59,045 bases of DNA from a virus (lineage: Duplodnaviria; Caudoviricetes), in IMG/VR virus record IMGVR_UViG_3300025151_000040, positions 1 through 59,045 of that record; one strand, written 5' to 3'. This document shows, in pieces, positions 18,533 through 56,744 of this stretch. The position numbers and the translations under genes were made by a program. Under the pieces are notes generated by a model. That model worked only from the letters and a program-made list of their open reading frames with translations. It had not been told where the DNA came from and ran no database searches. The first letter of the stretch is position 1; every line of letters begins with the position of its first letter.

Positions 18533-18757
18533 ATGAACATAGATCTCAAGATAGCTACTCCATATATTGTAATGGTAGTAGGTTTTGCTATGACTTGGGG
18601 TATGTGGAAATCTAGATTAGAAGCTGTAGAAACTAAGGTAGATACTATTACTCAAATGCAGTTAGACGTAGCTGTAATAAAAGAAAAAATAGTTCAAATG
18701 GACGATAAGATGGCTTGGATAGAAGAATTCTTAATTAAAAATTATAAAGAATATTAA
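18533..18757 (+). CDS. small membrane protein with coiled coil
   Basis: TM YIVMVVGFAMTWG followed by heptads. Confidence 0.55.
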   Translation: MNIDLKIATPYIVMVVGFAMTWGMWKSRLEAVETKVDTITQMQLDVAVIKEKIVQMDDKMAWIEEFLIKNYKEY

Positions 18758-20229
18758 ATCCATTCTTTCCAATTATCCCCTGTAATACTATCAGCTAAAG
18801 ACTTTTTATTGCGTAAAGCTTCGAATATCTTTTCATCAATAGTTTTAGGAGTTACAAAATCTATATAAGTAACTTTATTAGTTTGGCCTATTCTATGAGG
18901 TCTATCTTCCGATTGTAGTCTAACTTCTAAATCATAGCTATTAGCATAATAAATAACAGTAGTGGCGTTAGTTAAAGTTAATCCGTAACCACCAGTTCTA
19001 GGTTGTCCTATAAAATAATCTATTTCGCCAGCTTGAAATTGTGTAACTATTTCCTGTCTATCTTCAGATTTTGTGTCGCCATAATAAGTGGCGCATGTTT
19101 TATTAGGTAGATGTTTCTTTATAGCGTTTTCTATATCGTGAATAGATCTAGTATAGTTAGACCAAATAATAACTTGGCCTTCCGTTTCTTCAAGCACTTG
19201 AATTAATTCTGTTATTCGAGGGTTTACTTTATCTATTTCTTCTTCTCTTCCGTCATCATACTTTACGAAACCACACATGATTTGTTGTAATCTTAATAAT
19301 CGAGTAATAATAAGAGGAGCCGTTACAGATTTTTCTTCCGACAATTCTATATATGCTTTACGTCTTAATATATCATATACTTTCTTTTGTTTAGAAGTCA
19401 TTTCAATCTCTCGCTTTATGTAAATTTTATCTGGTAAATCTAAACATTCAGCTTTCGTTACACGATAAGAATAAGGTTTAATTATATCTTGTAGTTCATC
19501 TAAGTTTTGATAATCAACTATTTCATCAAACGTTCTCATATTAATAGTTCGCCTTCGTAAGACACAATAACGATTACGAAAACCATAAAAAGAAGATTGT
19601 AAGATATTATCAGAAAGAAAAGACATCTGAGTATAGATATCTATTGGCCCTGCAGTTACAGGTGTTCCTGTTAATATTCTACGATACTTTGCCATATTCG
19701 CAATCTTTAATAGATTCTTTGTTCTTCGAGCAGTTTTATGTTTTATCGTTGATGATTCATCTATAACAACCATAGACTTATGAACATTAAGAAAACGTTG
19801 AGTGTAGTGAAGTCCTTTTAGTGTACTAAAAGCTTCTATATTAATAATAAAGACTTTAAGACCGTTATGGCTAGACTTCATAAATTCGGTTAATCGTTCA
19901 ATATTCTTTTTCGTTTCAATAGGGTTCCATAACTCCATATAAATAGAATCAAGAACATCATCTGGCATATGTATAGGTATTTCTAACTTTAACCAGTTAC
20001 GATAAACACCTTTAGGTGCTACAATAATAGCACTATCTATACTGCCTTTTCTTGCAAGATAAGTTATCGTGTCTACAATAACTTTTGATTTACCAGTTCC
20101 TTGTTCCATAAATAGAGCATAATACTCTTCATCACGAGAAGTTTTAAAAACTTCCCATTGATGTTTAAATGGTTTCGTTTTATACTTATAGTCTATAAAT
20201 TCTTCATTACTAAAAGATACTTGCGTCAT
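18754..20229 (-). CDS. SNF2-family (SF2) helicase
   Basis: EQGTGKS, VIDESS, LTGTP, GLTLT, QSEDRPHRIGQ. Confidence 0.92.
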   Translation of the reverse strand: MTQVSFSNEEFIDYKYKTKPFKHQWEVFKTSRDEEYYALFMEQGTGKSKVIVDTITYLARKGSIDSAIIVAPKGVYRNWLKLEIPIHMPDDVLDSIYMELWNPIETKKNIERLTEFMKSSHNGLKVFIINIEAFSTLKGLHYTQRFLNVHKSMVVIDESSTIKHKTARRTKNLLKIANMAKYRRILTGTPVTAGPIDIYTQMSFLSDNILQSSFYGFRNRYCVLRRRTINMRTFDEIVDYQNLDELQDIIKPYSYRVTKAECLDLPDKIYIKREIEMTSKQKKVYDILRRKAYIELSEEKSVTAPLIITRLLRLQQIMCGFVKYDDGREEEIDKVNPRITELIQVLEETEGQVIIWSNYTRSIHDIENAIKKHLPNKTCATYYGDTKSEDRQEIVTQFQAGEIDYFIGQPRTGGYGLTLTNATTVIYYANSYDLEVRLQSEDRPHRIGQTNKVTYIDFVTPKTIDEKIFEALRNKKSLADSITGDNWKEWI

Positions 20230-23817: not shown

Positions 23818-24600
23818 TTGTATTTATTTTTTGACACAGAAACGAACGGCTTGTGGCGCCGTGATCTAGAAGCCACTGATCCAAAACAACCACATCTAGT
23901 ACAAATAGCTGCACAGTTAGTAGATGAAAATGAAAAAGTTATTAATCAATGTTCGATACTTATACGACCAGAAGGTTGGACTATTCCTAAAGATGCTGAA
24001 GATGTTCATGGCATCTCCAATGAGAAGGCAGCTACTTATGGTGTACCTCTTATTAGTGCCCTTTCTGTGTTTAATTCTATGGCAGCTTCGGCTCATACAC
24101 TTATCGCACATAACTTAGCTTTTGATTTGCAAATAATTGCAAGAGATTTTCATTATTTAAAAAAATCTTTTAAACAACCTAAAGACTTGCATTGTACTAT
24201 GATGAGTACAAAAGATATTCTTAAATTAGAAAGTGATTTTGACGATTACAAATTTCCTAAACTAGTTGAAACTTATGAACACTTTTTTAATGTAGCCTAT
24301 TTCGATTGGCACGATGCTTTAGCTGACGTTCAAGTATGTAGAATTATATATTTTCATTTAAAAAATAAAGGAATTGACTTAAAAGCACCGAGAGAACTTC
24401 CTAAAAAGTTGATTAAAGTAATGAATAATGACGATTACGAGGAATTAATCGGTTTAATTTCATCTATAAATAGAGATAATATAAGCGATTGGGAAAGCAA
24501 TTTTCTCAAAGACCAAGAAGAAAGAATTGACAAATACAAAGAAAAAGTGATGATATCTGATAAACAAATGAACATAATAAGGAGAATGGCAGAAAAATGA
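23818..24600 (+). CDS. DEDDh 3'-5' exonuclease (DnaQ-like)
   Basis: FFDTETNG, IAHNLAFD, HDALADV. Confidence 0.88.
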   Translation: MYLFFDTETNGLWRRDLEATDPKQPHLVQIAAQLVDENEKVINQCSILIRPEGWTIPKDAEDVHGISNEKAATYGVPLISALSVFNSMAASAHTLIAHNLAFDLQIIARDFHYLKKSFKQPKDLHCTMMSTKDILKLESDFDDYKFPKLVETYEHFFNVAYFDWHDALADVQVCRIIYFHLKNKGIDLKAPRELPKKLIKVMNNDDYEELIGLISSINRDNISDWESNFLKDQEERIDKYKEKVMISDKQMNIIRRMAEK

Positions 24601-25553
24601 AAACAGTTGTAGTAACAGGAGCCGCAGGATTCTTAGGAAGAAACTTGTGTGAACATTTATTAAATAAAGATTATAAAGTTGTTGGTATAGATAATTTTTT
24701 AACTGGTAGTGAACGTAATGTATTTGAACATGAAAACTATTACTTTTATGAAGCAGATATCGTTAAAGACGATTTATCAATGCTTCTTCGAGATCACAAT
24801 AAAAAAGGAATTAATTACATATATAACTTAGCTTGTCCTGCTTCACCAGATCATTATAAAACTCATGCTTTTCAAACGTTAGAAGCTTGTTATACAGGAT
24901 TAAAAAACATGATTACATATTCATTAGAGCAAGGAAATGTTAGAATGCTTCATACTTCTACAAGTGAAGTTTACGGAGATCCTCAAGTAGATGAACAGGA
25001 AGAGAAGTATTGGGGAAACGTAAATTCTTTCGGACCACGTGCTTGTTATGATGAAGGTAAAAGAGTTGGTGAAGCTTTAATCTATGAATCAATAAATAAA
25101 TTAAAATCAAATATAGGAATCGCAAGAATCTTTAATACTTATGGTCCTTATATGGCGATTAACGATGGTAGAGTTATATCTAATTTTATTACAGAAGGCT
25201 TAAAAGGCAATAATCTTATCATATACGGAGGCGGTTTTCAATCTAGATCTTTTTGTTATGTTGATGATACTATAAAAGGTTTAGTTAAAATTTGTGAAAG
25301 CGATTATAAAGAAATATTTAATGTAGGAAATCCTGATCGTTATACAATAGTTGAGATAGCTGAAATAATAGCAGAAAAAACAGATGCACCTGGTTGGAAA
25401 AATACTAACCCTTCACCAGACGATCCTTTACATAGAAAGCCTAACATTAAGAAAATACAAAATATGTTAGATTGGTCGCCTCAAATTTCTTTAGACAGTG
25501 GACTTGAAAGCACTATAGATTATTTTAAGCATGCTCTCGAAAGACAAAACTAA
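24597..25553 (+). CDS. UDP-glucuronate decarboxylase (UDP-xylose synthase), extended SDR
   Basis: TGAAGFLG, YNLACPASP, STSEVYGDP, YWGNVN..GPRACYDEGKR, RIFNTYGP, DGRVISNF, DDP..RKP. Confidence 0.85.
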   Translation: MKTVVVTGAAGFLGRNLCEHLLNKDYKVVGIDNFLTGSERNVFEHENYYFYEADIVKDDLSMLLRDHNKKGINYIYNLACPASPDHYKTHAFQTLEACYTGLKNMITYSLEQGNVRMLHTSTSEVYGDPQVDEQEEKYWGNVNSFGPRACYDEGKRVGEALIYESINKLKSNIGIARIFNTYGPYMAINDGRVISNFITEGLKGNNLIIYGGGFQSRSFCYVDDTIKGLVKICESDYKEIFNVGNPDRYTIVEIAEIIAEKTDAPGWKNTNPSPDDPLHRKPNIKKIQNMLDWSPQISLDSGLESTIDYFKHALERQN

Positions 25554-27045
25554 AATAATATTAGGTCCACCTGGCACTGGTAAAACAACTACATTATTAA
25601 ATATTTTAGAAGAAGAAATAGAAAGTGGGATAGCACCAGAACGCATTGGCTTTGTATCTTTTACACGCAGAGCAATTAAAGAAGCTAGAGATAGAACACT
25701 AGAAAAATTTAAAGACATTGATAAAGATCAATTAGATTATTTTAGAACACTTCATAGTTTATGTTTTAGATCGTTAGGCTTAAATAGTGAAAGAATATTT
25801 AAAGGCTTACATATTACAGAGTTTAAAAAAATATTAAGAATAGATATGACTGGTGATGTTGACGAAGAACAGATTGTATCTAATGGTGCTAGTTTAGGAG
25901 ATCGTATGTTATTTTGCGATCAGTTAGCTAGGGCAAAGATGTGCCCTCTAAAAGATACATGGAGAGAGTTGAAGTGTGATTACTTATGGGAAGAACAGAA
26001 GTTATTCTCAGATACACTTGTTGATTTTAAAATGAAAAGAAATCTTCTTGACTTTACTGATATGTTAAGTTCTTTTTTAGATTCTGAGTACACTCCTGAT
26101 ATAGATATTTTATTTGTTGACGAGGCGCAAGACTTAACGAAGCTACAGTGGAAAGTAATTGATAAATTATCTAACTCTGTAAAAACTATTTATATAGCAG
26201 GAGATGACGATCAAGCTATATATAAGTGGGCAGGAGCTGACGTAGAAACTTTCTTAAATCTTGACGGAGAGATTAGAATATTACCTTTCAGTTATAGATT
26301 AAAAAAACGTGTTTTTGATTTAGCAAATCAAGTTACTAAAAGAATTATGCAAAGATACGATAAAGATTGGTCTAGCAGTGAGGAACAGGGATCAGTTAAT
26401 TATATTGAATCTTATGAATATGCGGATATGTCTCAAGGAGGTTGGTTAATTTTAGCAAGAAATAATTATCAATTGTATCCTATAGAAAAATATCTAAAGC
26501 AAAAAGGATATGTATTTGAAAGAAAGTTCGGTGGATTTAGAGCTAATAAACATGTTGTAGCAATTAGAACTTGGCTTCAGTTAAGTAAGGGTGATGAAGT
26601 TTCTTATGATTCTATAATGAAACTATATAGTTGTATAAGAACAGGAGAGGGAATTAAAAGAGGTTTTAAAAACGGAAACAGTTTAGATAAAGAAAAATCT
26701 TATACATATCAAGACTTAAGAAATAATCATGGTTTAATAGCAATGGGAAAGTGGGAAGAAGCTTTAGGATTAATTCCTGACGATGATAAATATTATTATC
26801 AAGCTTTAGAAAAAACAGGAGATTTATTTTACAATGAACCGAGAATAAGACTTAGCACTATACATGGAAGTAAAGGCGCTGAAGCTGAAAATGTTATGCT
26901 TCTTACAGATGTATCTTATGCTACATGGAAAAACATAAATGATCAATCAGATGATGAACATCGTGTTTTTTATGTAGGAATTACTAGAACAAAGAATAAT
27001 TTATTTATAGTGAATCCACAAGGGCTATATAGTTATCCGATATGA
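25531..27045 (+). CDS. UvrD/Rep-like SF1 helicase
   Basis: GPPGTGKT, VDEAQD, GDDDQAIY, STIHGSKG.E, YVGITR. Confidence 0.92.
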   Translation: MLSKDKTKIILGPPGTGKTTTLLNILEEEIESGIAPERIGFVSFTRRAIKEARDRTLEKFKDIDKDQLDYFRTLHSLCFRSLGLNSERIFKGLHITEFKKILRIDMTGDVDEEQIVSNGASLGDRMLFCDQLARAKMCPLKDTWRELKCDYLWEEQKLFSDTLVDFKMKRNLLDFTDMLSSFLDSEYTPDIDILFVDEAQDLTKLQWKVIDKLSNSVKTIYIAGDDDQAIYKWAGADVETFLNLDGEIRILPFSYRLKKRVFDLANQVTKRIMQRYDKDWSSSEEQGSVNYIESYEYADMSQGGWLILARNNYQLYPIEKYLKQKGYVFERKFGGFRANKHVVAIRTWLQLSKGDEVSYDSIMKLYSCIRTGEGIKRGFKNGNSLDKEKSYTYQDLRNNHGLIAMGKWEEALGLIPDDDKYYYQALEKTGDLFYNEPRIRLSTIHGSKGAEAENVMLLTDVSYATWKNINDQSDDEHRVFYVGITRTKNNLFIVNPQGLYSYPI

Positions 27046-27689
27046 AAACAAAAAAAGAAATATTAGATTTATTTTTAAATCACATAGATTCAGAAATCTA
27101 TGAAGAACCTTACTCGAACATGCATGATGGTATTATAAGACAACAAGCTGACATATTTTTAGAAAGATTTTCTATATTAAAAGAAGATAAGATACTTGAC
27201 GTAGGTTGTGGCTTTGGTTTATTTCAACAATACTTAGCTCAAAAAGGATATCACAACACGATAGGAATTACAAAAGCTAAAAAAGATATAGATAATTTAA
27301 TAGAAACTAAAACACCTTTTAGAGAAACTGATATAACATTTACAGGTTTAGATAAAGATTATGTGAATCATATATGGTGTAGACATTGTATTGAACATAG
27401 TCCTTTTCCTTATTTAACGTTATTAGAGTTTAACAGAATTATGAAAAAAGATGGTTATTTATATTTAGAAATGCCAGCACCAGAACAGGCTGCTATACAA
27501 GAACATAAACAAAATCATTACTCTGTATTACCTAAAGAAATGTGGGCTAGTTTATTAATAAGATCTGGATTTAAAATTAAAAACTTTGAAACTATTGATT
27601 TAATGTTACAAAAGAAAAACGGAGAACAATATTCTGAATCGTGGTATTTTTATATGGCGCAAAAGACTTTAGAAAAATCTTTGTTTTAA
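27042..27689 (+). CDS. class I SAM-dependent methyltransferase (small-molecule/sugar type)
   Basis: ILDVGCGFG; HCIEH..P...L.E..R..K..G. Confidence 0.85.
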   Translation: MKTKKEILDLFLNHIDSEIYEEPYSNMHDGIIRQQADIFLERFSILKEDKILDVGCGFGLFQQYLAQKGYHNTIGITKAKKDIDNLIETKTPFRETDITFTGLDKDYVNHIWCRHCIEHSPFPYLTLLEFNRIMKKDGYLYLEMPAPEQAAIQEHKQNHYSVLPKEMWASLLIRSGFKIKNFETIDLMLQKKNGEQYSESWYFYMAQKTLEKSLF

Positions 27690-27742: not shown

Positions 27743-28792
27743 ATGAACGCAATCGGAAGTCATATCTTTGCTGGTGGGTTTACACTCGGAGTAGAGAAAC
27801 ATTTCAATGTACTAGCACATTTTGAAGGTGATGGCGCATATGGCGCTGACACGTTTTCTTTAAATAGACCTAATATACCAGTTTACTCTGGTCCTGCCGA
27901 CTGGCCTATTAAAGACTTTGAGGGTAAAATTGATTTCGTTTATGGTAACCCTCCTTGTGCTCCTTGGTCAACACTAGGAACGGGTGGTCGCAAAGATCTA
28001 GACTGGCGAGATGATCCTCGCATTGAAGCATGGTCTCATGTCTTTTCACTCCTTAATGACTTACAGCCAAAAGCTTTAGCGATTGAGTCCGTTCCTAGAG
28101 TATTTGCTAAAACAGGAGGTCGTCCTATGATTGACGACTTTACTAATAAAGCTATAAACTTAGGGTACAATGTTACTCATTTCTTACTTGACGGTCAGTA
28201 TACAAATTTAAATCATAGTCGTAGAAGATTCTTTTTTATGGCGCATAAAGGCGGTTTATCTTTTCCTAGATTGAATTGGAATCCAGCACCTACTATACAA
28301 GAAGTTTTAGGAGAAGTACCAGAACCTGGATACTGTAATTCATTTACTAAAACTGAAGCTGAGTTAGTACCTCAGTGCGGTCAAGGAGAACAGTTGAGAA
28401 CTGTATGGGAAAAATTAAATCCACCTGAAACTTGGGTAAGATCTGAAAAAGGAAGAAGAGGTGTAAAAGGTAGACCTCAATTTATGAAATGGAGATTACG
28501 AGCAAATAAACCTGCAGGAGTTATTGCTGGTGGATTCTACATTCACCCTACTGAACATCGATTATTAGGACATAAAGAATTAGCACACTTCGCAGGTTAT
28601 CCTCAAGACTATCAATGGGCAGGCTCTCCGACTGGTATAGGATCTTTAATCGCAAGAGGAGTTATGCCACCAGTAGGTGAATTTATAGGAAGAGTTGTAA
28701 AGAATTCTATAGCTGAAAATGAAGAAGCAAAGGAACAAGTACAGATGGTTGACTATACTAAACCACCTCAAATGGAAGATTTATTTACATGA
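27743..28792 (+). CDS. divergent DNA cytosine-C5 methyltransferase-like protein
   Basis: Motif I IFAGGF, IV GNPPC, VI ESV (normally ENV), VIII SRRR, IX RLL..E....GYP, X ARGV (normally GNAV/GNSV). Confidence 0.75.
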   Translation: MNAIGSHIFAGGFTLGVEKHFNVLAHFEGDGAYGADTFSLNRPNIPVYSGPADWPIKDFEGKIDFVYGNPPCAPWSTLGTGGRKDLDWRDDPRIEAWSHVFSLLNDLQPKALAIESVPRVFAKTGGRPMIDDFTNKAINLGYNVTHFLLDGQYTNLNHSRRRFFFMAHKGGLSFPRLNWNPAPTIQEVLGEVPEPGYCNSFTKTEAELVPQCGQGEQLRTVWEKLNPPETWVRSEKGRRGVKGRPQFMKWRLRANKPAGVIAGGFYIHPTEHRLLGHKELAHFAGYPQDYQWAGSPTGIGSLIARGVMPPVGEFIGRVVKNSIAENEEAKEQVQMVDYTKPPQMEDLFT

Positions 28793-29166
28793 GCCAGTAT
28801 AAAGATATTGATTCTTTTCATAAAAAATTTAAATTTAATCAAGGCAAAGGAATTGAATCAATGAATTATAATTTTGGTAACTGGCGTGTTGACTTTCTTA
28901 TGGAAGAGATTGCTGAGTTGACCGATGCTTTAGATAATAAAGATGATGTAGAAATACTAGATGCTTTAGTTGATATCTGTTATGTAGCTATGGGAACAGC
29001 TTGGTTAATGGGTTTACCATTTGAGAAAGCATGGAAAGAAGTACAACGGTCTAATATGGAAAAGATTAGACAAGCTAGTGATCGATCTGAATTTGACGTA
29101 GTTAAACCTGAAGGTTGGAAAAAACCAGATATAAAAGGAATAGTTAAAAAATGGCGAAAATCTTAG
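28789..29166 (+). CDS. MazG-like/all-alpha NTP pyrophosphohydrolase
   Basis: EEIAE..DALVD..YV..G..EV..SNM.K..KPEGW..PD. Confidence 0.85.
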   Translation: MSQYKDIDSFHKKFKFNQGKGIESMNYNFGNWRVDFLMEEIAELTDALDNKDDVEILDALVDICYVAMGTAWLMGLPFEKAWKEVQRSNMEKIRQASDRSEFDVVKPEGWKKPDIKGIVKKWRKS

Positions 29167-30191
29167 TTACAGGATTCACTGCTAAAGGAATTGGTAGTGG
29201 TGATAATAAATTAAATATCGCAACAAGTGCGAATCTACTTCCGAAAGCATTAAAGATGGTAGGACATGAAGTAATTCAAAGACCTATTATACCAGGTGAT
29301 GATGTTTCACAATACGATCATGTATTTGTATTTATGTTTCCACCGAATAGTTTACCAAGTGCTTATACTTATGGCGCAATGTATACATTAGCTAAAAGAC
29401 CAGACGCTGTTTGCTGTCTTGACGATTGGCAAACTAAAGATGTACCGTCAGGGTTTGCTACATTTGCAAGAGAAGGCCACTGGCGTTTATGGAAAACCCA
29501 TACACAATCTGGTGCGCCTATGAAAAAACGATATTACAACGAAGCACTAGAGTATAAACAAGAACTAAACGACTTGTGCACTACAATGGGATTTGAAGAA
29601 TGGCCGTATAGATGTCTTGCACCAGTGTATAGAACTGGTAATATTGAAGCATTAGGTATAAAAGCGAAAGAATTAATTGCATGGGATCCTACTCCTATTT
29701 GCGATTCCTATATGGAAACGCCTACAGATCTATTTAGTATTGATCAACAAGTTGACGTTAAAAATAAAGAAAAGAAATGGGTTTATGCTTCTCTCATTCA
29801 AAAGCCAGGTTGGTTAGAAAGAACACCTGGCGATTGGGAAGTACAAGCTTATGGTAATAAAAATTTAGGACAGGAAAGAATTAGTGAACATGAACTGTAT
29901 AAAATATATCAGAAATCATGGGGAGTATTAGTACCTCCTCACTATCACACTTTAAAGAAAAGCGGTTGGTGGAGAGTTCGTTATGGAATGATTAAAGATG
30001 CTGAATGTATTACTTGTGGAGATCCTACGGAACTATCAATCTTCTTTGAAGATAGAGTTAAACCTAGAAAAGCGATAGAATTGATGAGTGATAGTGAATT
30101 AAAAGATTATCGCAATAAACAGTTATTAGATTACGAAGACGTATTTTGGTCTAAAGAGGAATTAAAAAACTTTATAATAGATTTATTATGA
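29151..30191 (+). CDS. GT-B glycosyltransferase, T4 beta-glucosyltransferase-like (putative DNA glycosyltransferase)
   Basis: Rossmann-like start KILVTG; L...G.EV..YDHVFV....NS; DDW; C-terminal Y..SWGVL....WW.VR; context among nucleotide enzymes. Confidence 0.55.
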   Translation: MAKILVTGFTAKGIGSGDNKLNIATSANLLPKALKMVGHEVIQRPIIPGDDVSQYDHVFVFMFPPNSLPSAYTYGAMYTLAKRPDAVCCLDDWQTKDVPSGFATFAREGHWRLWKTHTQSGAPMKKRYYNEALEYKQELNDLCTTMGFEEWPYRCLAPVYRTGNIEALGIKAKELIAWDPTPICDSYMETPTDLFSIDQQVDVKNKEKKWVYASLIQKPGWLERTPGDWEVQAYGNKNLGQERISEHELYKIYQKSWGVLVPPHYHTLKKSGWWRVRYGMIKDAECITCGDPTELSIFFEDRVKPRKAIELMSDSELKDYRNKQLLDYEDVFWSKEELKNFIIDLL

Positions 30192-30739
30192 ACGGAATAT
30201 TAATTGTAGAAGGACCAGATGGTGCTGGTAAGACTACATTAATAAATCAACTTAGAGAACACTGGTTATTTAAAACTCGCTACATGCATCTGCGAGTTCA
30301 TAAAGAAATGGAAAAGTGGCACTGCGCTACTGCGAGAAGAGCCATTCGATTATCAAAAGATTATCTTGTTATCTTAGATAGACATTGGCCTAGTGAACAA
30401 ATCTATTCTTATGAACGATCACCTGGTCCAAGCTACGATCCTACGAATATGGTTGATTGGCTAAAGAGTCATGGTGCAATCTATATATGGGCTATACCAG
30501 AAGATTATCAAAGGTTGATTGAAGAACATAAAACTAGAAGAGAAGAAAGACATGAAGAGTACCACGATATAACGAAAGTTGTTAAAAGATATTACGATCA
30601 TTGGTACGGTACTTATGAAGGGCCAGATAATTATTTAAAGAAGATACAACCATTAAATAAAAGAAATGACTTCATACGATACGATCGGTTTACTGATAAA
30701 GATATCTTAGATAAAATAATAGATAGATTAAGACCATAG
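30188..30739 (+). CDS. P-loop dNMP kinase (thymidylate kinase-like)
   Basis: IVEGPDGAGKTT; LDR..PSE..Y. Confidence 0.85.
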   Translation: MNGILIVEGPDGAGKTTLINQLREHWLFKTRYMHLRVHKEMEKWHCATARRAIRLSKDYLVILDRHWPSEQIYSYERSPGPSYDPTNMVDWLKSHGAIYIWAIPEDYQRLIEEHKTRREERHEEYHDITKVVKRYYDHWYGTYEGPDNYLKKIQPLNKRNDFIRYDRFTDKDILDKIIDRLRP

Positions 30740-30752
30740 AAAGGAGAACTTA

Positions 30753-31538
30753 ATGCCTATGAATCATGCTAATGAAGTCTACCGTAATCTAATTGATGAA
30801 GTAGTAGACAGAGGATACGGAGCAGATCCTCGTGGTATGTTTACGAAAGAAATTATAGGACACACGACTAGATGTTCTATGAGTTCACCTATCGTTACGA
30901 TACCAGAAAGAGAACTCGGATATAAATTCATGTTCGCTGAAGCACACTGGATACTCTCTGGCGATAACCGAGTATCAACAATTAAACCTTACTCGAAAGC
31001 TATTAAAAGATTTAGTGATGACGGAGTATTTTATTTCGGAGCCTACGGTCCTAAGATCGTAGATCAACTACCTTATATATGTAAAGCTTTAAATGACGAT
31101 TTAACGACACGTCAAGCTTGTATTAATATATGGAGAGAGAAACCACCAGTATCGAGAGATATACCTTGCACGTTATCTTTACAATTTCTAATTCGAAGAG
31201 ATACCTTATATGTTATATCTAATATGAGAAGTAATGACGTATGGCTCGGTTGGCCTTACGATAACTTTAATTTTAGTATGATCGGTTTATCTGTCTGTCT
31301 CCTAATGAGACAAATGCATAATAAGAAACTTAAACTAGGAATGCTTATTAATAATGCTGGTAGTAGACATCTTTACAAGGAGAACTTCGAAAAAGCTTAT
31401 AAAGTTGCCGATTCAACAGCTTTAGGTTTTGGCTATGAAACTATTACGCCTGAAAGATTTAGTAGTTTTGAGGACTTAAAAAACGAATTAAAAGTATACA
31501 AGGATAACCCAAGTGAATTCCTCTTCGCACACACTTAG
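30753..31538 (+). CDS. thymidylate synthase-family enzyme, probably dCMP (hydroxy)methylase type
   Basis: YGP, TRQA, DIPC (catalytic Cys), MRSNDVWLGWPYD, HLY. Confidence 0.85.
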   Translation: MPMNHANEVYRNLIDEVVDRGYGADPRGMFTKEIIGHTTRCSMSSPIVTIPERELGYKFMFAEAHWILSGDNRVSTIKPYSKAIKRFSDDGVFYFGAYGPKIVDQLPYICKALNDDLTTRQACINIWREKPPVSRDIPCTLSLQFLIRRDTLYVISNMRSNDVWLGWPYDNFNFSMIGLSVCLLMRQMHNKKLKLGMLINNAGSRHLYKENFEKAYKVADSTALGFGYETITPERFSSFEDLKNELKVYKDNPSEFLFAHT

Positions 31539-31983
31539 ACCTAGTAAAGACGAATACTTTATGGACATGTGCTTTCTTGTATCTCAACGTAGCACGTGCA
31601 TGAGAAGGCAAGTAGGAGCTGTTTTAGTTAATAAGAGAAAACATGTTCTTGCTACAGGATATAACGGTGTAGCTGCAGGTCAACCTCATTGTTTAGATAT
31701 ACCTTGTATCGGTGCAAAATCTGTTAGTGGTACAGATTTAGAATTATGCGAAGCTGTTCATGCAGAACAAAATGCTCTACTTCAGTGTCAAAATGTGTTT
31801 GAAATAGATACATGTTACGTTACAGTATCTCCTTGTATGACGTGTACTAAGTTATTATTAAACACAAGTTGCCAAACGATAATCTATGCTGAAGATTACG
31901 TTGATCAGAATGCAAGAAAGTTATGGGAACGACACGATAGAAAGTGGGTAAGATTTGACGACGGATCTTTTCAAACCCACTAG
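31513..31983 (+). CDS. dCMP deaminase
   Basis: STC.RRQVGA, TGYNG, HAEQNA, SPC..C zinc motif. Confidence 0.92.
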   Translation: MNSSSHTLRPSKDEYFMDMCFLVSQRSTCMRRQVGAVLVNKRKHVLATGYNGVAAGQPHCLDIPCIGAKSVSGTDLELCEAVHAEQNALLQCQNVFEIDTCYVTVSPCMTCTKLLLNTSCQTIIYAEDYVDQNARKLWERHDRKWVRFDDGSFQTH

Positions 31984-33820
31984 CGATTGGACTCCACCTA
32001 CAGTATTACCAGATCTTTCTTCTTCGAAGATTATCGGTATTGACTTAGAAACATTCGACCCTGGTTTAAAAAAACATGGACCTGGAAGCATCAGGAAAGA
32101 TGGACATGTTTCTGGTATTAGTATAGCAGGAGATAATTACAAGGGTTACTATCTTCCTATCGCACATCAAGACGGTGGTAATCTTCCTAAACCTTTAGTT
32201 ATAAATTATTTAAAAGAATTGTTTTCTACAGATACTCCTAAAGTATTTGCTAATGCTCTCTACGATTTAGAATGGTTGCATAATTTAGGAATAAAAGTAA
32301 ATGGTAAATGCTATGACGTTCAATTACTAGAACATCTTATTGATGAGAATCAAAAAGATTATTCTCTAAAAGCATTAGGTCTAAAGTATGTTGGTGAGGG
32401 TAAAGATGAAACTTTATTAGTTGACGCCGTTAGATCAATCTTAGGAAAGAAAGATGTAAAAGGAAACTTATGGCGACTTCACAGTAGCTATGTTGGACCG
32501 TATGCTGAACAAGATGCTATCTTACCTGTAAAGATATTAAAAGAACAATGGAAGAAAATAAAAAAACAAGAATTAAATCGTATTGTACAATTAGAAACTG
32601 ATCTTACTCCTTTACTGCTAGATATGAGAGTACAAGGAGTTAATGTTGACTTAGATAATGCGGATCAAGTATCTAAAAGATTAGAAAGACAAGAACATGA
32701 AGCTCAAGATATTTTAAACAAGAAGTCAGGAATTGACTGTAACGTATGGGCAAATGAAAGTTTAGGAAGAGCATACGATAACTGCAGTATTCCTTATGGT
32801 AGAACTCCTACAGGGAAACCTAGCTTTACTCAAAGCTTTCTTGACTATGCTGAAGATGAATTATCAAGTTTAGTTTTAAAGGTAAGAAAACTAAACAAAC
32901 TAAGAACTACTTTTATTCACGGCATGATATTAGAAAAGCACGTAAACGGAAGAGTACATTGTCAATTTAATGCGAGAGGTGCTGTTACGGGTAGATTTAG
33001 TTCTAGTAACCCTAATCTTCAACAAGTACCTGCTCGTGATGAAGAACTGTCTAAATTAATACGAGGCCTCTTCTTGCCTGAAGAAAATGAAAAATGGTAT
33101 TGTATTGATTACGCACAACAAGAACCTAGACTTCTAGTTCATTTTGCTTCACGACTAAAATTACCAGAAAGTGTTACTGCTTTATCAGCTTATAAGAATG
33201 ATGAGACAACTGACTTTCATACGATGGTCGCTTCTATGGCAGGAATAAAAAGAAAACAAGCTAAGACGATTAACTTAGGTTTGTTTTATGGTATGGGTAA
33301 AAAGAAATTAGCCAATCAATTAGGATTAGAAACTAACGATGCTGAGAAATTATTTCGTCAGTACCATACTCGTGTTCCTTTCGTAAGAGGTCTTTACGAT
33401 AGAATGTTGAACTATGCGTCAAAGAACGGATACATAAAAACTTTACTTGGTCGTAAAAGACATTTCGATCTATGGGAAAATGCTAACGACTTCGGAAGCA
33501 TGGGTCATCCGTTAGAGAAAGCAAAAGAGATTTATAAAGGAAAACCTATTAGACGTGCATATACACATAAAGCACTTAATTCTTTAATACAAGGAAGTGC
33601 GGCTGACGTAACGAAAGCTGCAATGTTAAAAGTATACAAAGCAGGGTTATTGACTCCTCTCATTACAGTTCATGATGAACTTGACTTCTCTATTCCACAA
33701 GACGATAAGGGAAAAGAACAATTAAAAGAGATAGTGCATGAAATGAAAAACTGTGTTGACTTAGATCTTCCTCTTCAGGTTGACGTAGAATCTGGTAGTA
33801 ATTGGGGTAACATTGAGTGA
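31955..33820 (+). CDS. polA: family A DNA polymerase with 3'-5' exonuclease domain
   Basis: IDLET, TGRFSSSNPNLQ, DYAQQEPR, AKTINLGLFYG, IQGSAAD, VHDE. Confidence 0.95.
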   Translation: MTTDLFKPTSDWTPPTVLPDLSSSKIIGIDLETFDPGLKKHGPGSIRKDGHVSGISIAGDNYKGYYLPIAHQDGGNLPKPLVINYLKELFSTDTPKVFANALYDLEWLHNLGIKVNGKCYDVQLLEHLIDENQKDYSLKALGLKYVGEGKDETLLVDAVRSILGKKDVKGNLWRLHSSYVGPYAEQDAILPVKILKEQWKKIKKQELNRIVQLETDLTPLLLDMRVQGVNVDLDNADQVSKRLERQEHEAQDILNKKSGIDCNVWANESLGRAYDNCSIPYGRTPTGKPSFTQSFLDYAEDELSSLVLKVRKLNKLRTTFIHGMILEKHVNGRVHCQFNARGAVTGRFSSSNPNLQQVPARDEELSKLIRGLFLPEENEKWYCIDYAQQEPRLLVHFASRLKLPESVTALSAYKNDETTDFHTMVASMAGIKRKQAKTINLGLFYGMGKKKLANQLGLETNDAEKLFRQYHTRVPFVRGLYDRMLNYASKNGYIKTLLGRKRHFDLWENANDFGSMGHPLEKAKEIYKGKPIRRAYTHKALNSLIQGSAADVTKAAMLKVYKAGLLTPLITVHDELDFSIPQDDKGKEQLKEIVHEMKNCVDLDLPLQVDVESGSNWGNIE

Positions 33821-39713: not shown

Positions 39714-39784
39714 GATTAAATCAGCAAACTACCATAATTGTACTGTTATTACTGTTAGTCTTAAAACAGTACGGTGTCTTATGA
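39710..39784 (+). CDS. 24-aa hydrophobic peptide
   Basis: ATGA overlaps at both ends; MRLNQQTTIIVLLLLLVLKQYGVL. Confidence 0.55.
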   Translation: MRLNQQTTIIVLLLLLVLKQYGVL

Positions 39785-40311
39785 ATATCTTTGCTCTTTC
39801 ACGATGTGCTCAAACGTCAGCTGAATGGCTATGCGATAAGCATGTCGTGAAGATGATATTAGAAACAGGCCAGATGTTATCGACAGCTCATCATGAGTTA
39901 AAATCTAAACATCTTGGTAGATATAAATATTATGAACCAGCATATGTAAATCACCCATGTACTGTATGGGCTAGAACTTCTCATGCTAATTACTTCTGGT
40001 TATACGAACACTTTGAAAGACTATGTCAACTGTACGAAGAGATATACCACAGAACTCATAAGACATGGGTTAAACTTCACAAAGCTTGTAGTATGAGTCC
40101 ATTCGAATTAACTGGTCCTTTTAAAACACCTGATAGTAGCTTGATTGACTTGACTGAGTTTCCTCAATGTATGCCAGATAAATACAAAGATACAGATTCA
40201 CACTTAGCATATCGAAGATATTACATAGGTGAAAAGCTACATTTCGCAGAGTACAAGAGTAGAAAGATTCCTGCGTGGATTGCTTCAAAAGATGTTTATC
40301 TTGATAATTAA
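39781..40311 (+). CDS. pyrimidine-dimer glycosylase (DenV/Pyr_excise)-related protein
   Basis: MNIF.L..A...CDKHVVKMILE..QMLSTAH..HPC..W.R.S..NY.WL..PQCMP. Confidence 0.7.
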   Translation: MNIFALSRCAQTSAEWLCDKHVVKMILETGQMLSTAHHELKSKHLGRYKYYEPAYVNHPCTVWARTSHANYFWLYEHFERLCQLYEEIYHRTHKTWVKLHKACSMSPFELTGPFKTPDSSLIDLTEFPQCMPDKYKDTDSHLAYRRYYIGEKLHFAEYKSRKIPAWIASKDVYLDN

Positions 40312-43717: not shown

Positions 43718-43844
43718 TATTCGTATTAAGTTTAACGAAAAACTTCGTATAAGTTTCAGAAAAAACAGGTGCCTGTGCCTGTAGGAGCGAGTAGCGACTG
43801 AACAAATAGCTTTTATATGTATAAATTTCATATATAAATAATTG

Positions 43845-44495
43845 ATGGCTTTTCTCGTAGCAAACATTCCACCTATTGAAGTTTATGTAAAAAAAGAGTA
43901 TCTTTATGACCATGAAAAAGGTCATGGAGAATTTGAAAAAGGTGTTTGGGTCACTGCTAAGTCGATTACCGGCAGAGCTTTGTATTTCGAAACGTACTTA
44001 TATAATTCTGGCGCTCTTTTTGATAAGCTGCCTATATCTGCTTTCTGCTCAAAGCCAGTAAAGCCAGAAGAAAGTTTACCATTAGAAGAGTTACAGTTAT
44101 GGGATTGTTTCAGTTACCACATTTCTGTTATAGAAAAGTGTAACGCAGGAACAGGTCGTTGTAAGTATTTCTCACCAAATAAAAATTGGCATTACGGAGT
44201 TTATCTGTTTACGATAGATTCTGCACACGCCGATCCTAACATTCCTAACTGTGGTTACTCAGAAGTTCCTAGTCAACATAAGTCTTTCAATATTATTGAA
44301 TTAGATAATGGTCATTATGCAGCTCAACCAAATAATCGAGTTATATTTTACGATAAAAGTTTGTCTCCGAAAGAAATGACGTTCCCTGATTATAAAGTTT
44401 CTACTATTGAATATAGTGTCGAGCATCATTCTAAATGGGTTGCAGGAGATGATGAAAGTTTCTTTTATGAACTTAGAGATACTACAAAAAGCTGA
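43845..44495 (+). CDS. phage hypothetical protein
   Basis: ANIPP..V.KEYLYD..GE..KLPISAF..LQLWDCFSY..HKS..QPNNR. Confidence 0.8.
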   Translation: MAFLVANIPPIEVYVKKEYLYDHEKGHGEFEKGVWVTAKSITGRALYFETYLYNSGALFDKLPISAFCSKPVKPEESLPLEELQLWDCFSYHISVIEKCNAGTGRCKYFSPNKNWHYGVYLFTIDSAHADPNIPNCGYSEVPSQHKSFNIIELDNGHYAAQPNNRVIFYDKSLSPKEMTFPDYKVSTIEYSVEHHSKWVAGDDESFFYELRDTTKS

Positions 44496-50118: not shown

Positions 50119-50284
50119 AAAACTTAGAAGAGATTTATCTGAACGAACAGTTAATCCAGGTTTTAATACTAACGAACAATATATTAAAACTATCGGAATT
50201 GTTTATGGTTTAGATAGAGCCAGAGATATTATTAAAGATATTTCTGAACGATACATGAAAGGAGATATACTCGAAGATGAGTAA
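50081..50284 (+). CDS. small head-module protein
   Basis: Y...IG.V.GL motif; lies before GroES. Confidence 0.6.
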   Translation: MLKITEAIQEEIKKLRRDLSERTVNPGFNTNEQYIKTIGIVYGLDRARDIIKDISERYMKGDILEDE

Positions 50285-50651
50285 TATTGTCATGAATAAC
50301 GATTGGCATACAGATAATGATATAGCCGATCCTAAAGAACTACCGATACCATGCGGTTATCGAATACTTATTCGACCAGTTGCACCTATTAAAAAAACTC
50401 AAGGTGGAATTATTCTAACTGATAAAGCTGTAGAAGATCAAACGTATCTTAACAGTAAAGGAAGAGTTATAGCTATGGGAAGTGAGTGTTACGACACAAA
50501 AAATCCATGGTGCAAAATTGGAGATTTTGTAGTATATGGTAGATATGCAGGAAGTAAGATTGACGTTGGTGGCGTTAAGATGCTCCTGATAAATGATGAT
50601 GAAGTATTAGCTGTTCTACCGAACCCTGATATTTTAACGACTAAAGTATAA
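50277..50651 (+). CDS. groES: co-chaperonin GroES-like protein
   Basis: P.GYRILIRP..KT.GGIIL..G.V.A.G..GD.V....YAG..IND.EVLA. Confidence 0.9.
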   Translation: MSNIVMNNDWHTDNDIADPKELPIPCGYRILIRPVAPIKKTQGGIILTDKAVEDQTYLNSKGRVIAMGSECYDTKNPWCKIGDFVVYGRYAGSKIDVGGVKMLLINDDEVLAVLPNPDILTTKV

Positions 50652-55614: not shown

Positions 55615-55981
55615 CAATAGACGTAGACCAGTAAAAGCACCTTCTTTTCCTTTTGCAAGGGGAACGTATGCTAGAGCTATTTCAGATCGTTCAGGTTTAG
55701 AATATCCATATAGAGAAATGGTTCGTGAATGGAATGGATTATTAGTTCATATAAGCGAGTATGAACCTAAACATCCTCAATTAGATCCTATTGTATTTAA
55801 TGATCCAGAAGCGTTAAAAAATGCTAGACCACAAGCACCTCTTTCAGCTACAGGAGGTGTACCAAATCAAATATCAGTAACTTTCCCTGGCACGTTTGGA
55901 GACACAGGTAAAAACGTAGCGGTAGCTACAGGGAATTCAATCGGATTGGAGTTAGGAAATGTCTCAGTCGTTATCAGCTGA
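55604..55981 (+). CDS. neck-module protein
   Basis: G..A.AISDRSG...PY..M..EW.G..V...E.EPKHPQL..DP..L...RP. Confidence 0.65.
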   Translation: MVFNNRRRPVKAPSFPFARGTYARAISDRSGLEYPYREMVREWNGLLVHISEYEPKHPQLDPIVFNDPEALKNARPQAPLSATGGVPNQISVTFPGTFGDTGKNVAVATGNSIGLELGNVSVVIS

Positions 55982-56744
55982 TAATGCATATCTTATGTTA
56001 TGCACACCTTGTTATGGTGGCGTAATGCACGAAGCTTATTTTCATAGCGTTGTAAAATTATTACAAGAAGCTAAAAATAATAATTATAAAATTCACATTA
56101 ACACAATGGGAAATGAAAGTCTTATTACTAGAGGAAGAAACACTATGGTTTCTCAATTTATGGATAGCGAATACTGTACTCATTTACTATTTATAGATGC
56201 TGATATAGCGTTTAGACCTGAATTAGTTACTAAATTAATAAATTTTGATAAAGACGTAGTTACAGCTGTGTATCCTAGAAAATCTATTGAATGGCAAAAT
56301 CTTAATTACTATTTAAAAAAAGGAAATACAGATTCGATAGAACAGAAATTATTAGGATATAATTTGAATTTTGCAGATCCTTTAAATATAGAAGTAGATA
56401 ATGGTTTCGTAGAAGTATTAGATGCTGCAACTGGATTTATGTTAATTAAAAAAGATGTATTTGTAAAAATGAGAGAAAGTTATCCAGAGTTAAAATATAA
56501 ATCAGATCAGATTATTAATAATAAATCTTATTCAAGCGATTGGTGTTATTCCTTTTTTGATTGTATGATAGATCCAGATAGCAAACGATATTTAAGTGAA
56601 GATTACACATTTTGTCGAAGATGGCAAAAAATAGGCGGTAAAATATACTCAGAAATACAAAGCCCTTTAACTCATTTTGGCACATATGCATTTAAAGGAA
56701 ATGTATCGCATAAATTTGCAAAAAAAGATAATATAGACATATAA
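55959..56744 (+). CDS. GT-A fold (GT2-like) glycosyltransferase
   Basis: TPCYGG, ESLITRGRN, LLFIDADI (DxD), ATGFMLI, YLSEDY.FC..W. Confidence 0.8.
   Translation: MSQSLSADNAYLMLCTPCYGGVMHEAYFHSVVKLLQEAKNNNYKIHINTMGNESLITRGRNTMVSQFMDSEYCTHLLFIDADIAFRPELVTKLINFDKDVVTAVYPRKSIEWQNLNYYLKKGNTDSIEQKLLGYNLNFADPLNIEVDNGFVEVLDAATGFMLIKKDVFVKMRESYPELKYKSDQIINNKSYSSDWCYSFFDCMIDPDSKRYLSEDYTFCRRWQKIGGKIYSEIQSPLTHFGTYAFKGNVSHKFAKKDNIDI

Follow-up and report, generated by a model that had tools for sequence, protein, structure and literature searches.

In bacteriophage T4, 5-hydroxymethylcytosine (5hmC) is produced by a pathway that comprises gp42, the gp56 dCTPase, the gp1 deoxynucleoside monophosphate (dNMP) kinase, the cd deaminase and the beta-glucosyltransferase (BGT), and it has been understood since T4 that thymidylate synthase (TS) homologues of the Asp type make modified dCMP in the company of a pyrophosphatase, a kinase, a deaminase and a glycosyltransferase. 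Here we analysed the IMG/VR virus record IMGVR_UViG_3300025151_000040, the whole 59,045 bases of which we refer to as the window, and the TS homologue encoded in it by the open reading frame (ORF) 30753-31538. We predict, at a probability of roughly 78%, that this ORF encodes a folate-dependent dCMP 5-hydroxymethylase, which works in the manner of T4 gp42 but falls in another branch of the ThyA superfamily. The spread of Asp-type TS genes in metaviromes has already been published (PMC8670742; 10.1101/2024.12.05.627091), and the combination of a dCMP deaminase, an Asp-type TS homologue, a PRA-PH protein and PolA is described as typical of modified-cytosine metavirome contigs (10.1101/2024.12.05.627091). 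The TS genes of marine podoviruses were discussed earlier in terms of thymidine hypermodification (PMC9599517).

The ORF and the codons of its diagnostic residues are the following:

30753..31538, + strand: ThyA-fold pyrimidine C5 transferase, predicted dCMP 5-hydroxymethylase; 261 aa, translated from the window
31158..31160, + strand: codon of Asp136, equivalent to E. coli Leu143 and T4 gp42 Asp145; marker of hydroxymethyl versus methyl products
31167..31169, + strand: codon TGC of the catalytic Cys139, equivalent to E. coli Cys146
31236..31238, + strand: codon of Asp162, equivalent to E. coli Asp169, on the folate side; Asn in 5-hydroxy-dCMP synthases
31260..31262, + strand: codon GAT of Asp170, equivalent to E. 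coli Asn177 and T4 gp42 Asp179; selector of cytosine versus uracil

The ORF is preceded by a Shine-Dalgarno-like AAAGGAG upstream of its ATG, and its product matches Pfam PF00303 (Thymidylat_synt) with an E value of 1.3e-18 and 67.5 bits against a cut-off of 24.3. Residues 159-170 read RSNDVWLGWPYD, and E. coli ThyA RSCDVFLGLPFN aligns without gaps across this motif, which equates Asp170 with E. coli Asn177 and Cys139 with Cys146. The first-pass annotation had placed D170 at 31260-31262, named C139 as the catalytic cysteine and put Asp at the position of ThyA Asn177; translation of the window bore this out, with the GAT and TGC codons where expected. Further residues of the ThyA fold are also present, such that Cys139, Glu63, Tyr98, Arg159, His206 and Tyr208 correspond to the catalytic Cys, Glu58, Tyr94, Arg166, His207 and Tyr209. 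Compared to ThyA, the active site carries the changes Leu143 to Asp, His147 to Thr, Gln165 to Met, Trp80 to Ile and Asn177 to Asp, and the first of these lies three residues ahead of the catalytic Cys, in Asp136-Ile-Pro-Cys139. Asp170, Cys139 and Asp162 are each found in 121/121 aligned sequences (the query and the 120 best of 2346 homologues), and Asp136, Cys139, Asp162 and Asp170 are invariant in all 48 rows of a second alignment with identities down to 36%. Asp170 is a feature of the clade and not a chance substitution.

Residues at E. coli positions 143/147/165/168/169/177 were compared with those of reference enzymes whose products have been established experimentally:

Window protein, predicted product 5-hydroxymethyl-dCMP (5hm-dCMP): D/T/M/N/D/D
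T4 gp42, product 5hm-dCMP: D/T/M/N/D/D, identical to the window protein
Xp12 and PaMx74 TS homologues, from genomes with 5-methylcytosine (5mC), product 5-methyl-dCMP: N/P/L/S/D/D
RB69 gp48, product 5-hydroxy-dCMP: E/T/M/Q/N/D
dUMP hydroxymethylases (SPO1-type gp29, SP10, MP1412), product 5-hydroxymethyl-dUMP: D/N/N/N/D/N
E. coli ThyA, product dTMP: L/H/Q/C/D/N

The signature of the window protein obeys the published rules for positions 143, 169 and 177, and on this ground we predict a dCMP hydroxymethylase. As set out in PMC13326640, Asn177Asp leads to the selection of dCMP, Leu143Asp/Glu accompanies hydroxymethyl rather than methyl products, and Asp169Asn marks the flavin-dependent 5-hydroxy-dCMP synthases, all proven makers of 5-hydroxycytosine (5hoC) described there carrying Asn. 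In T4 gp42, Asp145 sits three residues before the Cys and the D145N variant is reported to be inactive (PMC6400193). The likely sugar preference can be read in a similar way. In MilA, the CMP 5-hydroxymethylase of Streptomyces rimofaciens (PDB 5b6d, 5jnh), Lys133 and Ala176 are reported to confer preference for CMP, while deoxyribonucleotide enzymes carry Arg and Ser at these positions (PMC5175136); unlike MilA, the window protein has Arg120 and Ser160, in agreement with the deoxyribose-preferring enzymes.

A second line of evidence comes from a glycosyltransferase (GT) gene in the same block:

29151..30191, + strand: GT-B protein of 346 aa, candidate DNA (5hmC) glycosyltransferase, structural relative of T4 BGT

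This 346-aa ORF has no Pfam or NCBIfam match, and its PHROG, phrog_14998, is of unassigned function. An AF2 model (pLDDT 88.9) placed T4 BGT entries at Foldseek ranks 1-6, and VIA aligned 295 of the 346 residues to T4 BGT at Z 18.6 and a root-mean-square deviation (rmsd) of 4.0, compared to Z 15.6 for the next family and 15.4 for the T4 alpha-glucosyltransferase. The link to BGT is purely one of modelled fold, and a profile comparison of the family with RB69 gp52 gave nothing significant. Within the family, D91, D92, H266, S271-G272-W273, R275, R277 and E294 are invariant.

Relatives of the 346-aa ORF are encoded on 279 viral contigs, the best 80 of which provide the loci statistics given here. 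A TS homologue was present within the fetched flank in 66/80 GT loci; three of the 14 loci that lacked one end less than 1.4 kb past the GT gene and the other eleven represent a distant subfamily (25-28% identity). Three of the 66 linked TS homologues are truncated, and all 63 that are readable at position 177 have Asp. The combination D143/T147/D169/D177 occurs in 61/63, with one homologue having Asn143 and one Asn147 instead, and Asp169 is kept in 64/64 linked homologues readable at that position. Because the association of the GT with Asp177 holds down to 23-25% identity between TS homologues and 28% between GTs, it goes beyond the shared ancestry of a single phage group. Genes for MazG (51), a kinase (53), a deaminase (44) and PolA (55) are frequent partners in the 80 loci, and in the Actinomycetia phage DSL-LC01 the GT relative adjoins genes for a UDP-galactopyranose mutase and MazG. 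This genomic linkage to Asp-type TS homologues is what supports the 346-aa protein as a candidate for sugar transfer to 5hmC in DNA. We found no description of this module or of the GT family in the literature, an absence that in itself proves nothing.

We additionally built a careful maximum-likelihood (ML) tree of 35 rows, comprising 13 references, the window protein, 10 of the 66 GT-linked homologues and 11 of 149 new representatives. A split with support 99/94 separated E. coli ThyA, VR26 td, Xp12 and PaMx74 from T4 gp42, RB69 gp48, the three dUMP hydroxymethylases and the entire window clade, and the same split was recovered in a quick 45-row tree with an SH-aLRT of 91. A phylogeny with T4 gp42, Xp12 and an SPO1-type enzyme had been proposed as a check in the first-pass annotation, and its outcome was to place the window clade on the hydroxymethylase/hydroxylase side. 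Owing to their long branches, the placement of T4 and RB69 inside their half of the tree is unreliable. The dUMP hydroxymethylases share one polytomy with the window clade within the supported half; they also gave the best BLAST matches among characterised phage enzymes (25-29% identity, E 1e-16 to 5e-19), and MilA is the best sequence match in the PDB (1.5e-19). The branch of the TS homologue lies closer to MilA and to the dUMP hydroxymethylases of phages than to T4 gp42.

Consistent with this placement, the AF2 model of the TS homologue (pLDDT 95.1) retrieved MilA at Foldseek ranks 1-7 (E ~1e-20, TM 0.76-0.82), with the first thymidylate synthase following at 7e-16. VIA-align gave Z 27.5-27.9 for MilA over 246-248 residues (rmsd 2.3-2.4), compared to at most 24.4 for thymidylate synthases and 24.1 for the flavin monooxygenase 9iqc. 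Since MilA is the top structural match for the published 5-hydroxy-dCMP hydroxylases as well, the fold speaks against a plain thymidylate synthase and cannot part a hydroxymethylase from a hydroxylase. Residue 169 does separate the two.

Two of the aligned TS homologues call for separate mention. The td gene of the T4-like Gaprivervirus Escherichia phage vB_EcoM_VR26 (L009:492-1352, + strand), which adjoins frd, had been included in place of T4 td, an intron-containing gene, as a clean dTMP synthase control; it was dropped as such, carrying Asp at 177 in an otherwise ThyA-like protein (L143, H147, Q165 and the C-terminus), and E. coli ThyA was left as the sole canonical reference. The second is a 363-aa TS homologue in an IMG/VR locus, located ~5.6 kb upstream of a relative of the GT gene, which clusters with the MP1412-type dUMP hydroxymethylase (98/94) and retains Asn147 and Asn165, yet has Asp177. 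Its sequence gives the impression of a separate change to cytosine that arose inside the hydroxymethyluracil branch.

Because the only TS-like gene of the window phage is hydroxymethylase-like and a T4-like sugar-transferase adjoins it, sugar-tagged hydroxymethylcytosine in the phage DNA is the most likely outcome. Several points weigh against the assignment of the TS homologue as a dCMP hydroxymethylase or against this outcome. The product of the enzyme is predicted from residues, tree position and neighbours, and the rule that Asp169Asn marks hydroxylases was drawn from a limited set of tested enzymes. The BLAST match to T4 gp42 is local only (35% over 78 residues, E 1.4e-8), and the Ser of the T4 motif Ser94-x-Tyr96 is absent from the window protein, which has Gly96-Ala97-Tyr98. 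The same Gly-Ala-Tyr form is found in MilA and the dUMP hydroxymethylases, and the surrounding FSDDG...AYG region is common to the latter and the window protein, the MilA form being YSADG...AYG. Since the equivalent of Ser94 is absent, though the Tyr is present, we class the protein as working like gp42 and not as a gp42 orthologue. With regard to the GT, an hhalign comparison of the 346-aa family with the T4 BGT sequence was insignificant (probability 12%), and a modelled fold match by itself proves neither function nor action on DNA. A C5-cytosine DNA methyltransferase homologue with intact motifs, encoded upstream at 27743-28792, would be idle if all cytosines were already substituted at C5; its intact motifs suggest either that some cytosines stay unsubstituted or that it acts in some other way. 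Finally, five of seven tested deaminase-linked Asp-type TS homologues are reported to have made 5-methyl-dCMP (10.1101/2024.12.05.627091).

The last finding bears on an Xp12-type dCMP methylase, which would make 5-methyl-dCMP so that 5mC replaces cytosine, with the deaminase turning 5-methyl-dCTP into dTTP. Asp177 marks dCMP methylases too, the MazG-like and deaminase neighbours are homologous to the nucleoside triphosphate pyrophosphohydrolases (NTP-PPases) and deaminases that accompany the TS homologues of Xp12 and PaMx74 (39-45% and 31-32% identity, respectively), and such a route would provide thymidine to a phage without a dTMP synthase of its own. At position 143, however, the window protein has Asp, as opposed to Asn in Xp12 and PaMx74 and Leu in ThyA, it carries T/M and not P/L at 147/165, and the 99/94 split sets its clade apart from Xp12, PaMx74 and ThyA. 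The cofactor economy differs as well. No dihydrofolate reductase (DHFR) was found in the virus record, whereas both 5mC phages keep a DHFR gene beside those for the TS homologue and deaminase; methylation oxidises folate and hydroxymethylation does not, and a DHFR next to the gene in the 5mC phages therefore fits methylation. In addition, the adjoining glycosyltransferase would find no acceptor on 5mC. We consider a methylase improbable.

A flavin-dependent 5-hydroxy-dCMP synthase of the RB69 gp48 or DLP3 gp80 type, with the sugar ether-bonded directly to 5-hydroxycytosine, seems to us no better a prospect. The kinase, the GT-B glycosyltransferase and the TS homologue do form a cassette resembling RB69 gp45-48 and RL38JI gp214-216, T/M/D at 147/165/177 is common to RB69 gp48 and the window protein, and a GT relative, gp40 of Morganella phage Rgz1, is encoded in a cluster of the arabinosylation type, flanked by the DNA polymerase gene on one side and by genes for arabinose-5-phosphate isomerase and nucleoside diphosphate (NDP) sugars on the other. 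The match of the TS model to 9iqc and the shared top match to MilA point the same way, with 9iqc scoring 3.5 Z units below MilA. What separates the two activities is position 169, where Asp is kept in all aligned homologues and in every readable GT-linked one, while the proven 5hoC makers reported in PMC13326640 carry Asn; furthermore, the window protein shares its RSND motif with T4 gp42 and not the RSQN of RB69. The annotation that preceded this work had left methylase, hydroxymethylase and hydroxylase side by side. Among these three the hydroxymethylase fits best, and the offer can be narrowed to it by the Asp before the catalytic Cys, Asp169, the side of the tree, the adjoining BGT-like GT and the lack of DHFR.

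An ordinary dTMP synthase that tolerates Asp and draws dUMP from the adjacent deaminase, which corresponds to the annotation of relatives as thymidylate synthase in public records, is very hard to credit. A dCMP deaminase gene does lie directly downstream, and ORF 30753-31538 is the only TS-like gene of the phage: a whole-genome scan with Pfam PF00303 found this one TS homologue (64.3 bits) and no second TS, and no ThyX was detected in the record. Five active-site positions (143, 147, 165, 80 and 177) nonetheless differ from ThyA, the C-terminal lid residues of ThyA are missing, with alignment gaps at positions 262-264, and all seven NCBIfam thymidylate synthase equivalog models scored far below cut-off (26-50 bits against cut-offs of 108-427; the best, 50.2 bits, against its cut-off of 327). 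Published mutagenesis, as cited in PMC13326640 and PMC8670742, found Asn177Asp to switch preference to dCMP, and the related Stenotrophomonas phage AXL3 is reported to have both a separate ThyX and DNA modified at G/C (PMC7504290). The residues, the missing C-terminus and the unreached cut-offs support the earlier claim that the enzyme modifies dCMP rather than making dTMP. The thymidine hypermodification route (Wittmers et al.) was rejected on two grounds: position 177 is Asp and not Asn, and an aGPT-Pplase-like family was not matched. When all 76 ORFs of at least 80 aa were scanned with Pfam and PHROG, neither an aGPT-Pplase-type nor a TET/JBP-type family came up.

The genes that surround the predicted dCMP hydroxymethylase and the 346-aa GT are as follows:

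24597..25553, + strand: UDP-glucuronate decarboxylase (UDP-xylose synthase) homologue; PDB match to human UXS1 4gll at 5.5e-78, residues 2-317
25531-27045: UvrD helicase, between the UDP-xylose synthase homologue and the S-adenosylmethionine (SAM) methyltransferase
27042-27689, + strand: class I SAM methyltransferase (Methyltransf_23/11), flanked by the UvrD helicase and C5 methyltransferase genes
27743..28792, + strand: C5-cytosine DNA methyltransferase homologue; Pfam PF00145 at 1e-23
28789..29166, + strand: MazG-like all-alpha NTP pyrophosphohydrolase, candidate dCTPase/dUTPase; Pfam PRA-PH at 1.7e-14, PDB DR2231 at 3e-8
30188..30739, + strand: P-loop dNMP (thymidylate-kinase-like) kinase, candidate 5hm-dCMP kinase; PHROG thymidylate kinase at 8e-11
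31513..31983, + strand: dCMP deaminase; Pfam dCMP_cyt_deam_1 at 7.2e-22, PDB 2hvv at 6.9e-20, T4 cd at 1.4e-14
31955..33820, + strand: family A DNA polymerase with 3'-5' exonuclease (PolA); Pfam DNA_pol_A at 2.1e-71

The core order is thus MazG, GT, dNMP kinase, TS, dCMP deaminase and PolA. The kinase ORF also gave weak matches to Pfam and NCBIfam dTMP-kinase P-loop models, below their cut-offs, and matched RB69 gp45 at the P-loop alone (24 residues). The C5 methyltransferase homologue lies directly upstream of MazG and is present in 49/80 GT loci, and its motifs FAGGF, NPPCA, ESV and RxR are conserved in 43/45 sequences, the other two having gaps. The usual forms in C5 methyltransferases are PCQ and ENV, in place of which this ORF has NPPCA and ESV. 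The class I SAM methyltransferase is found in 9/80 GT loci. In BLASTP comparisons at E 1e-3, neither methyltransferase of the window matched the methyltransferases encoded ahead of the NTP-PPase in MW202510, PW916 and AXL3, nor the 'capping protein' that takes this place in MW202621, indicating that the upstream methyltransferase of many such modules is not one conserved family.

From these residues and this gene content, a route to glycosylated 5hmC can be proposed. Cys139 would attack C6 of dCMP, Asp170 would read and protonate N3/N4 of the cytosine, and one carbon would be added at C5 from methylene-tetrahydrofolate (THF). Asp136 may then position a water, so that the exocyclic methylene is hydrated instead of receiving a hydride; in that case, the products would be 5hm-dCMP and THF, not dihydrofolate. 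As suggested by gene content and order, the MazG-like enzyme would convert dCTP to dCMP and thereby deplete dCTP, and the adjacent P-loop kinase would raise 5hm-dCMP to the diphosphate, which host NDP kinase would turn into 5hm-dCTP. Phage PolA could then incorporate 5hm-dCTP, and the BGT-like glycosyltransferase would subsequently add sugar to 5hmC in the DNA. The dCMP deaminase, like T4 cd, would feed dUMP to the thymidylate synthase of the host, the phage having none of its own; some deaminases in such neighbourhoods are reported to prefer 5-methyl- or 5-hydroxymethyl-dCTP (bioRxiv 10.1101/2024.12.05.627091). The expected outcome is DNA shielded from restriction enzymes that read G/C-containing sites.

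The UDP-xylose synthase homologue, which PHROGs labels 'nucleotide-sugar epimerase', is syntenic in 10/10 of the closest loci with enough upstream DNA and in 0/43 loci of more distant groups. One could imagine that this phage and its closest relatives decorate 5hmC with xylose, using their own UDP-xylose and the BGT-like transferase, with the C5 methyltransferase adding a step or covering residual cytosines. We put this forward as a doubtful proposal. If true, xylosyl-5hmC would count as a previously undescribed DNA base, carried by a group of uncultured marine podoviruses; we found no report of xylosyl-hydroxymethylcytosine in the literature, and pentose-decorated cytosines are described for RB69 and Thanatos. 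A 261-aa ORF inside the structural block (55959-56744, + strand; phrog_34859) has weak glycosyltransferase-like matches, including Pfam Anp1 at 6.9e-5, below its cut-off, and may likewise draw on a sugar nucleotide made by the phage.

The record represents a complete or nearly complete virus (CheckV 96%) with the genes of a tailed phage, including terminase, portal, capsid, SU10-type adaptors, an AEP primase, helicases and the family A polymerase. Nearly all family-matched ORFs of at least 80 aa lie on the + strand, and a SNF2-family helicase (18754-20229, - strand) is the sole scanned minus-strand ORF with a family match. At the level of single genes, the nearest isolated relatives are pelagiphages and uncultured aquatic phages; a DNA-level search of the module against isolated phages gave only short patches in pelagiphages and polymerase genes. 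We also observed a 217-aa ORF (43842-44495, + strand) that matches phrog_3704 ('ferredoxin') at 4e-94, belongs to no Pfam or NCBIfam family and overlaps the start of the large terminase ORF, as well as a GroES-type co-chaperonin (50277-50651, + strand; Cpn10 at 1.2e-14) and a pyrimidine-dimer DNA glycosylase homologue (39781-40311, + strand; Pyr_excise at 1.1e-6).

Action of an Asp-type TS homologue on dCMP is a principle familiar from T4, and published work has already charted it in metaviromes; what is gained here is therefore annotation and scope rather than a new mechanism. Two points are new: the window clade is narrowed to hydroxymethylase, and the unannotated phrog_14998 family is assigned a BGT fold and named as the partner of Asp-type TS homologues, with which its linkage is strict. 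The related sequences form 2346 clusters at 90% identity and 552 clusters at 50% identity with E <= 1e-30, and the DNA-modification system appears widespread in viral metagenomes. If the prediction holds, phages of this kind carry glycosylated hydroxymethylcytosine, and the public label 'thymidylate synthase' for the gene and its relatives hides a DNA-modification system. This would bear on susceptibility to restriction and CRISPR, on sequencing and library bias in marine viromes and on estimates of phage nucleotide demand, and would provide a function for the phrog_14998 family, which is without a Pfam or NCBIfam match. The anti-restriction strategy itself is known; the setting is new.

In comparison with known systems, gp28 of AXL3 is 44% identical to the window protein and shares D/T/M/D/D at 143/147/165/169/177, with Ser at 168. 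According to PMC7504290, only two of 37 restriction enzymes cut AXL3 DNA, both of them A/T-only cutters, and the 35 that failed to cut it all recognise sites containing G/C, which shows modification of some sort at G/C sites within the clade. RB69 gp48 and DLP3 gp80 resemble the window protein in Asp177, Thr147, Met165, an acidic residue at 143 and the cassette with kinase and glycosyltransferase, but have Asn169 where it has Asp. Xp12 and PaMx74 share Asp177 and the homologous MazG and deaminase genes; they differ in Asn143/Pro147/Leu165, the adjacent DHFR and their position on the opposite side of the tree. The dUMP hydroxymethylases (SPO1 gp29 type, SP10, M6/MP1412 type) have Asp143, Asp169 and FSDDG in common with the window protein; unlike it, they carry the uracil-specific Asn at 177, 147 and 165 and lead to thymidine hypermodification. 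MilA, the best solved relative in both sequence and structure, shares the Asp before the catalytic Cys, Asp177 and the SxDG...AYGP region, but prefers a ribonucleotide and serves antibiotic biosynthesis rather than DNA. In contrast to T4, the window has a thymidylate-kinase-like and not a gp1-like kinase, a MazG/DR2231-like pyrophosphatase and a family A polymerase, lacks td and frd, and includes a C5 DNA methyltransferase homologue in the block. Like T4, it encodes an NTP pyrophosphatase, a kinase, a deaminase and a BGT-fold GT-B enzyme, here collected in one block whose gene order, by analogy, mirrors the T4 hydroxymethylcytosine pathway.

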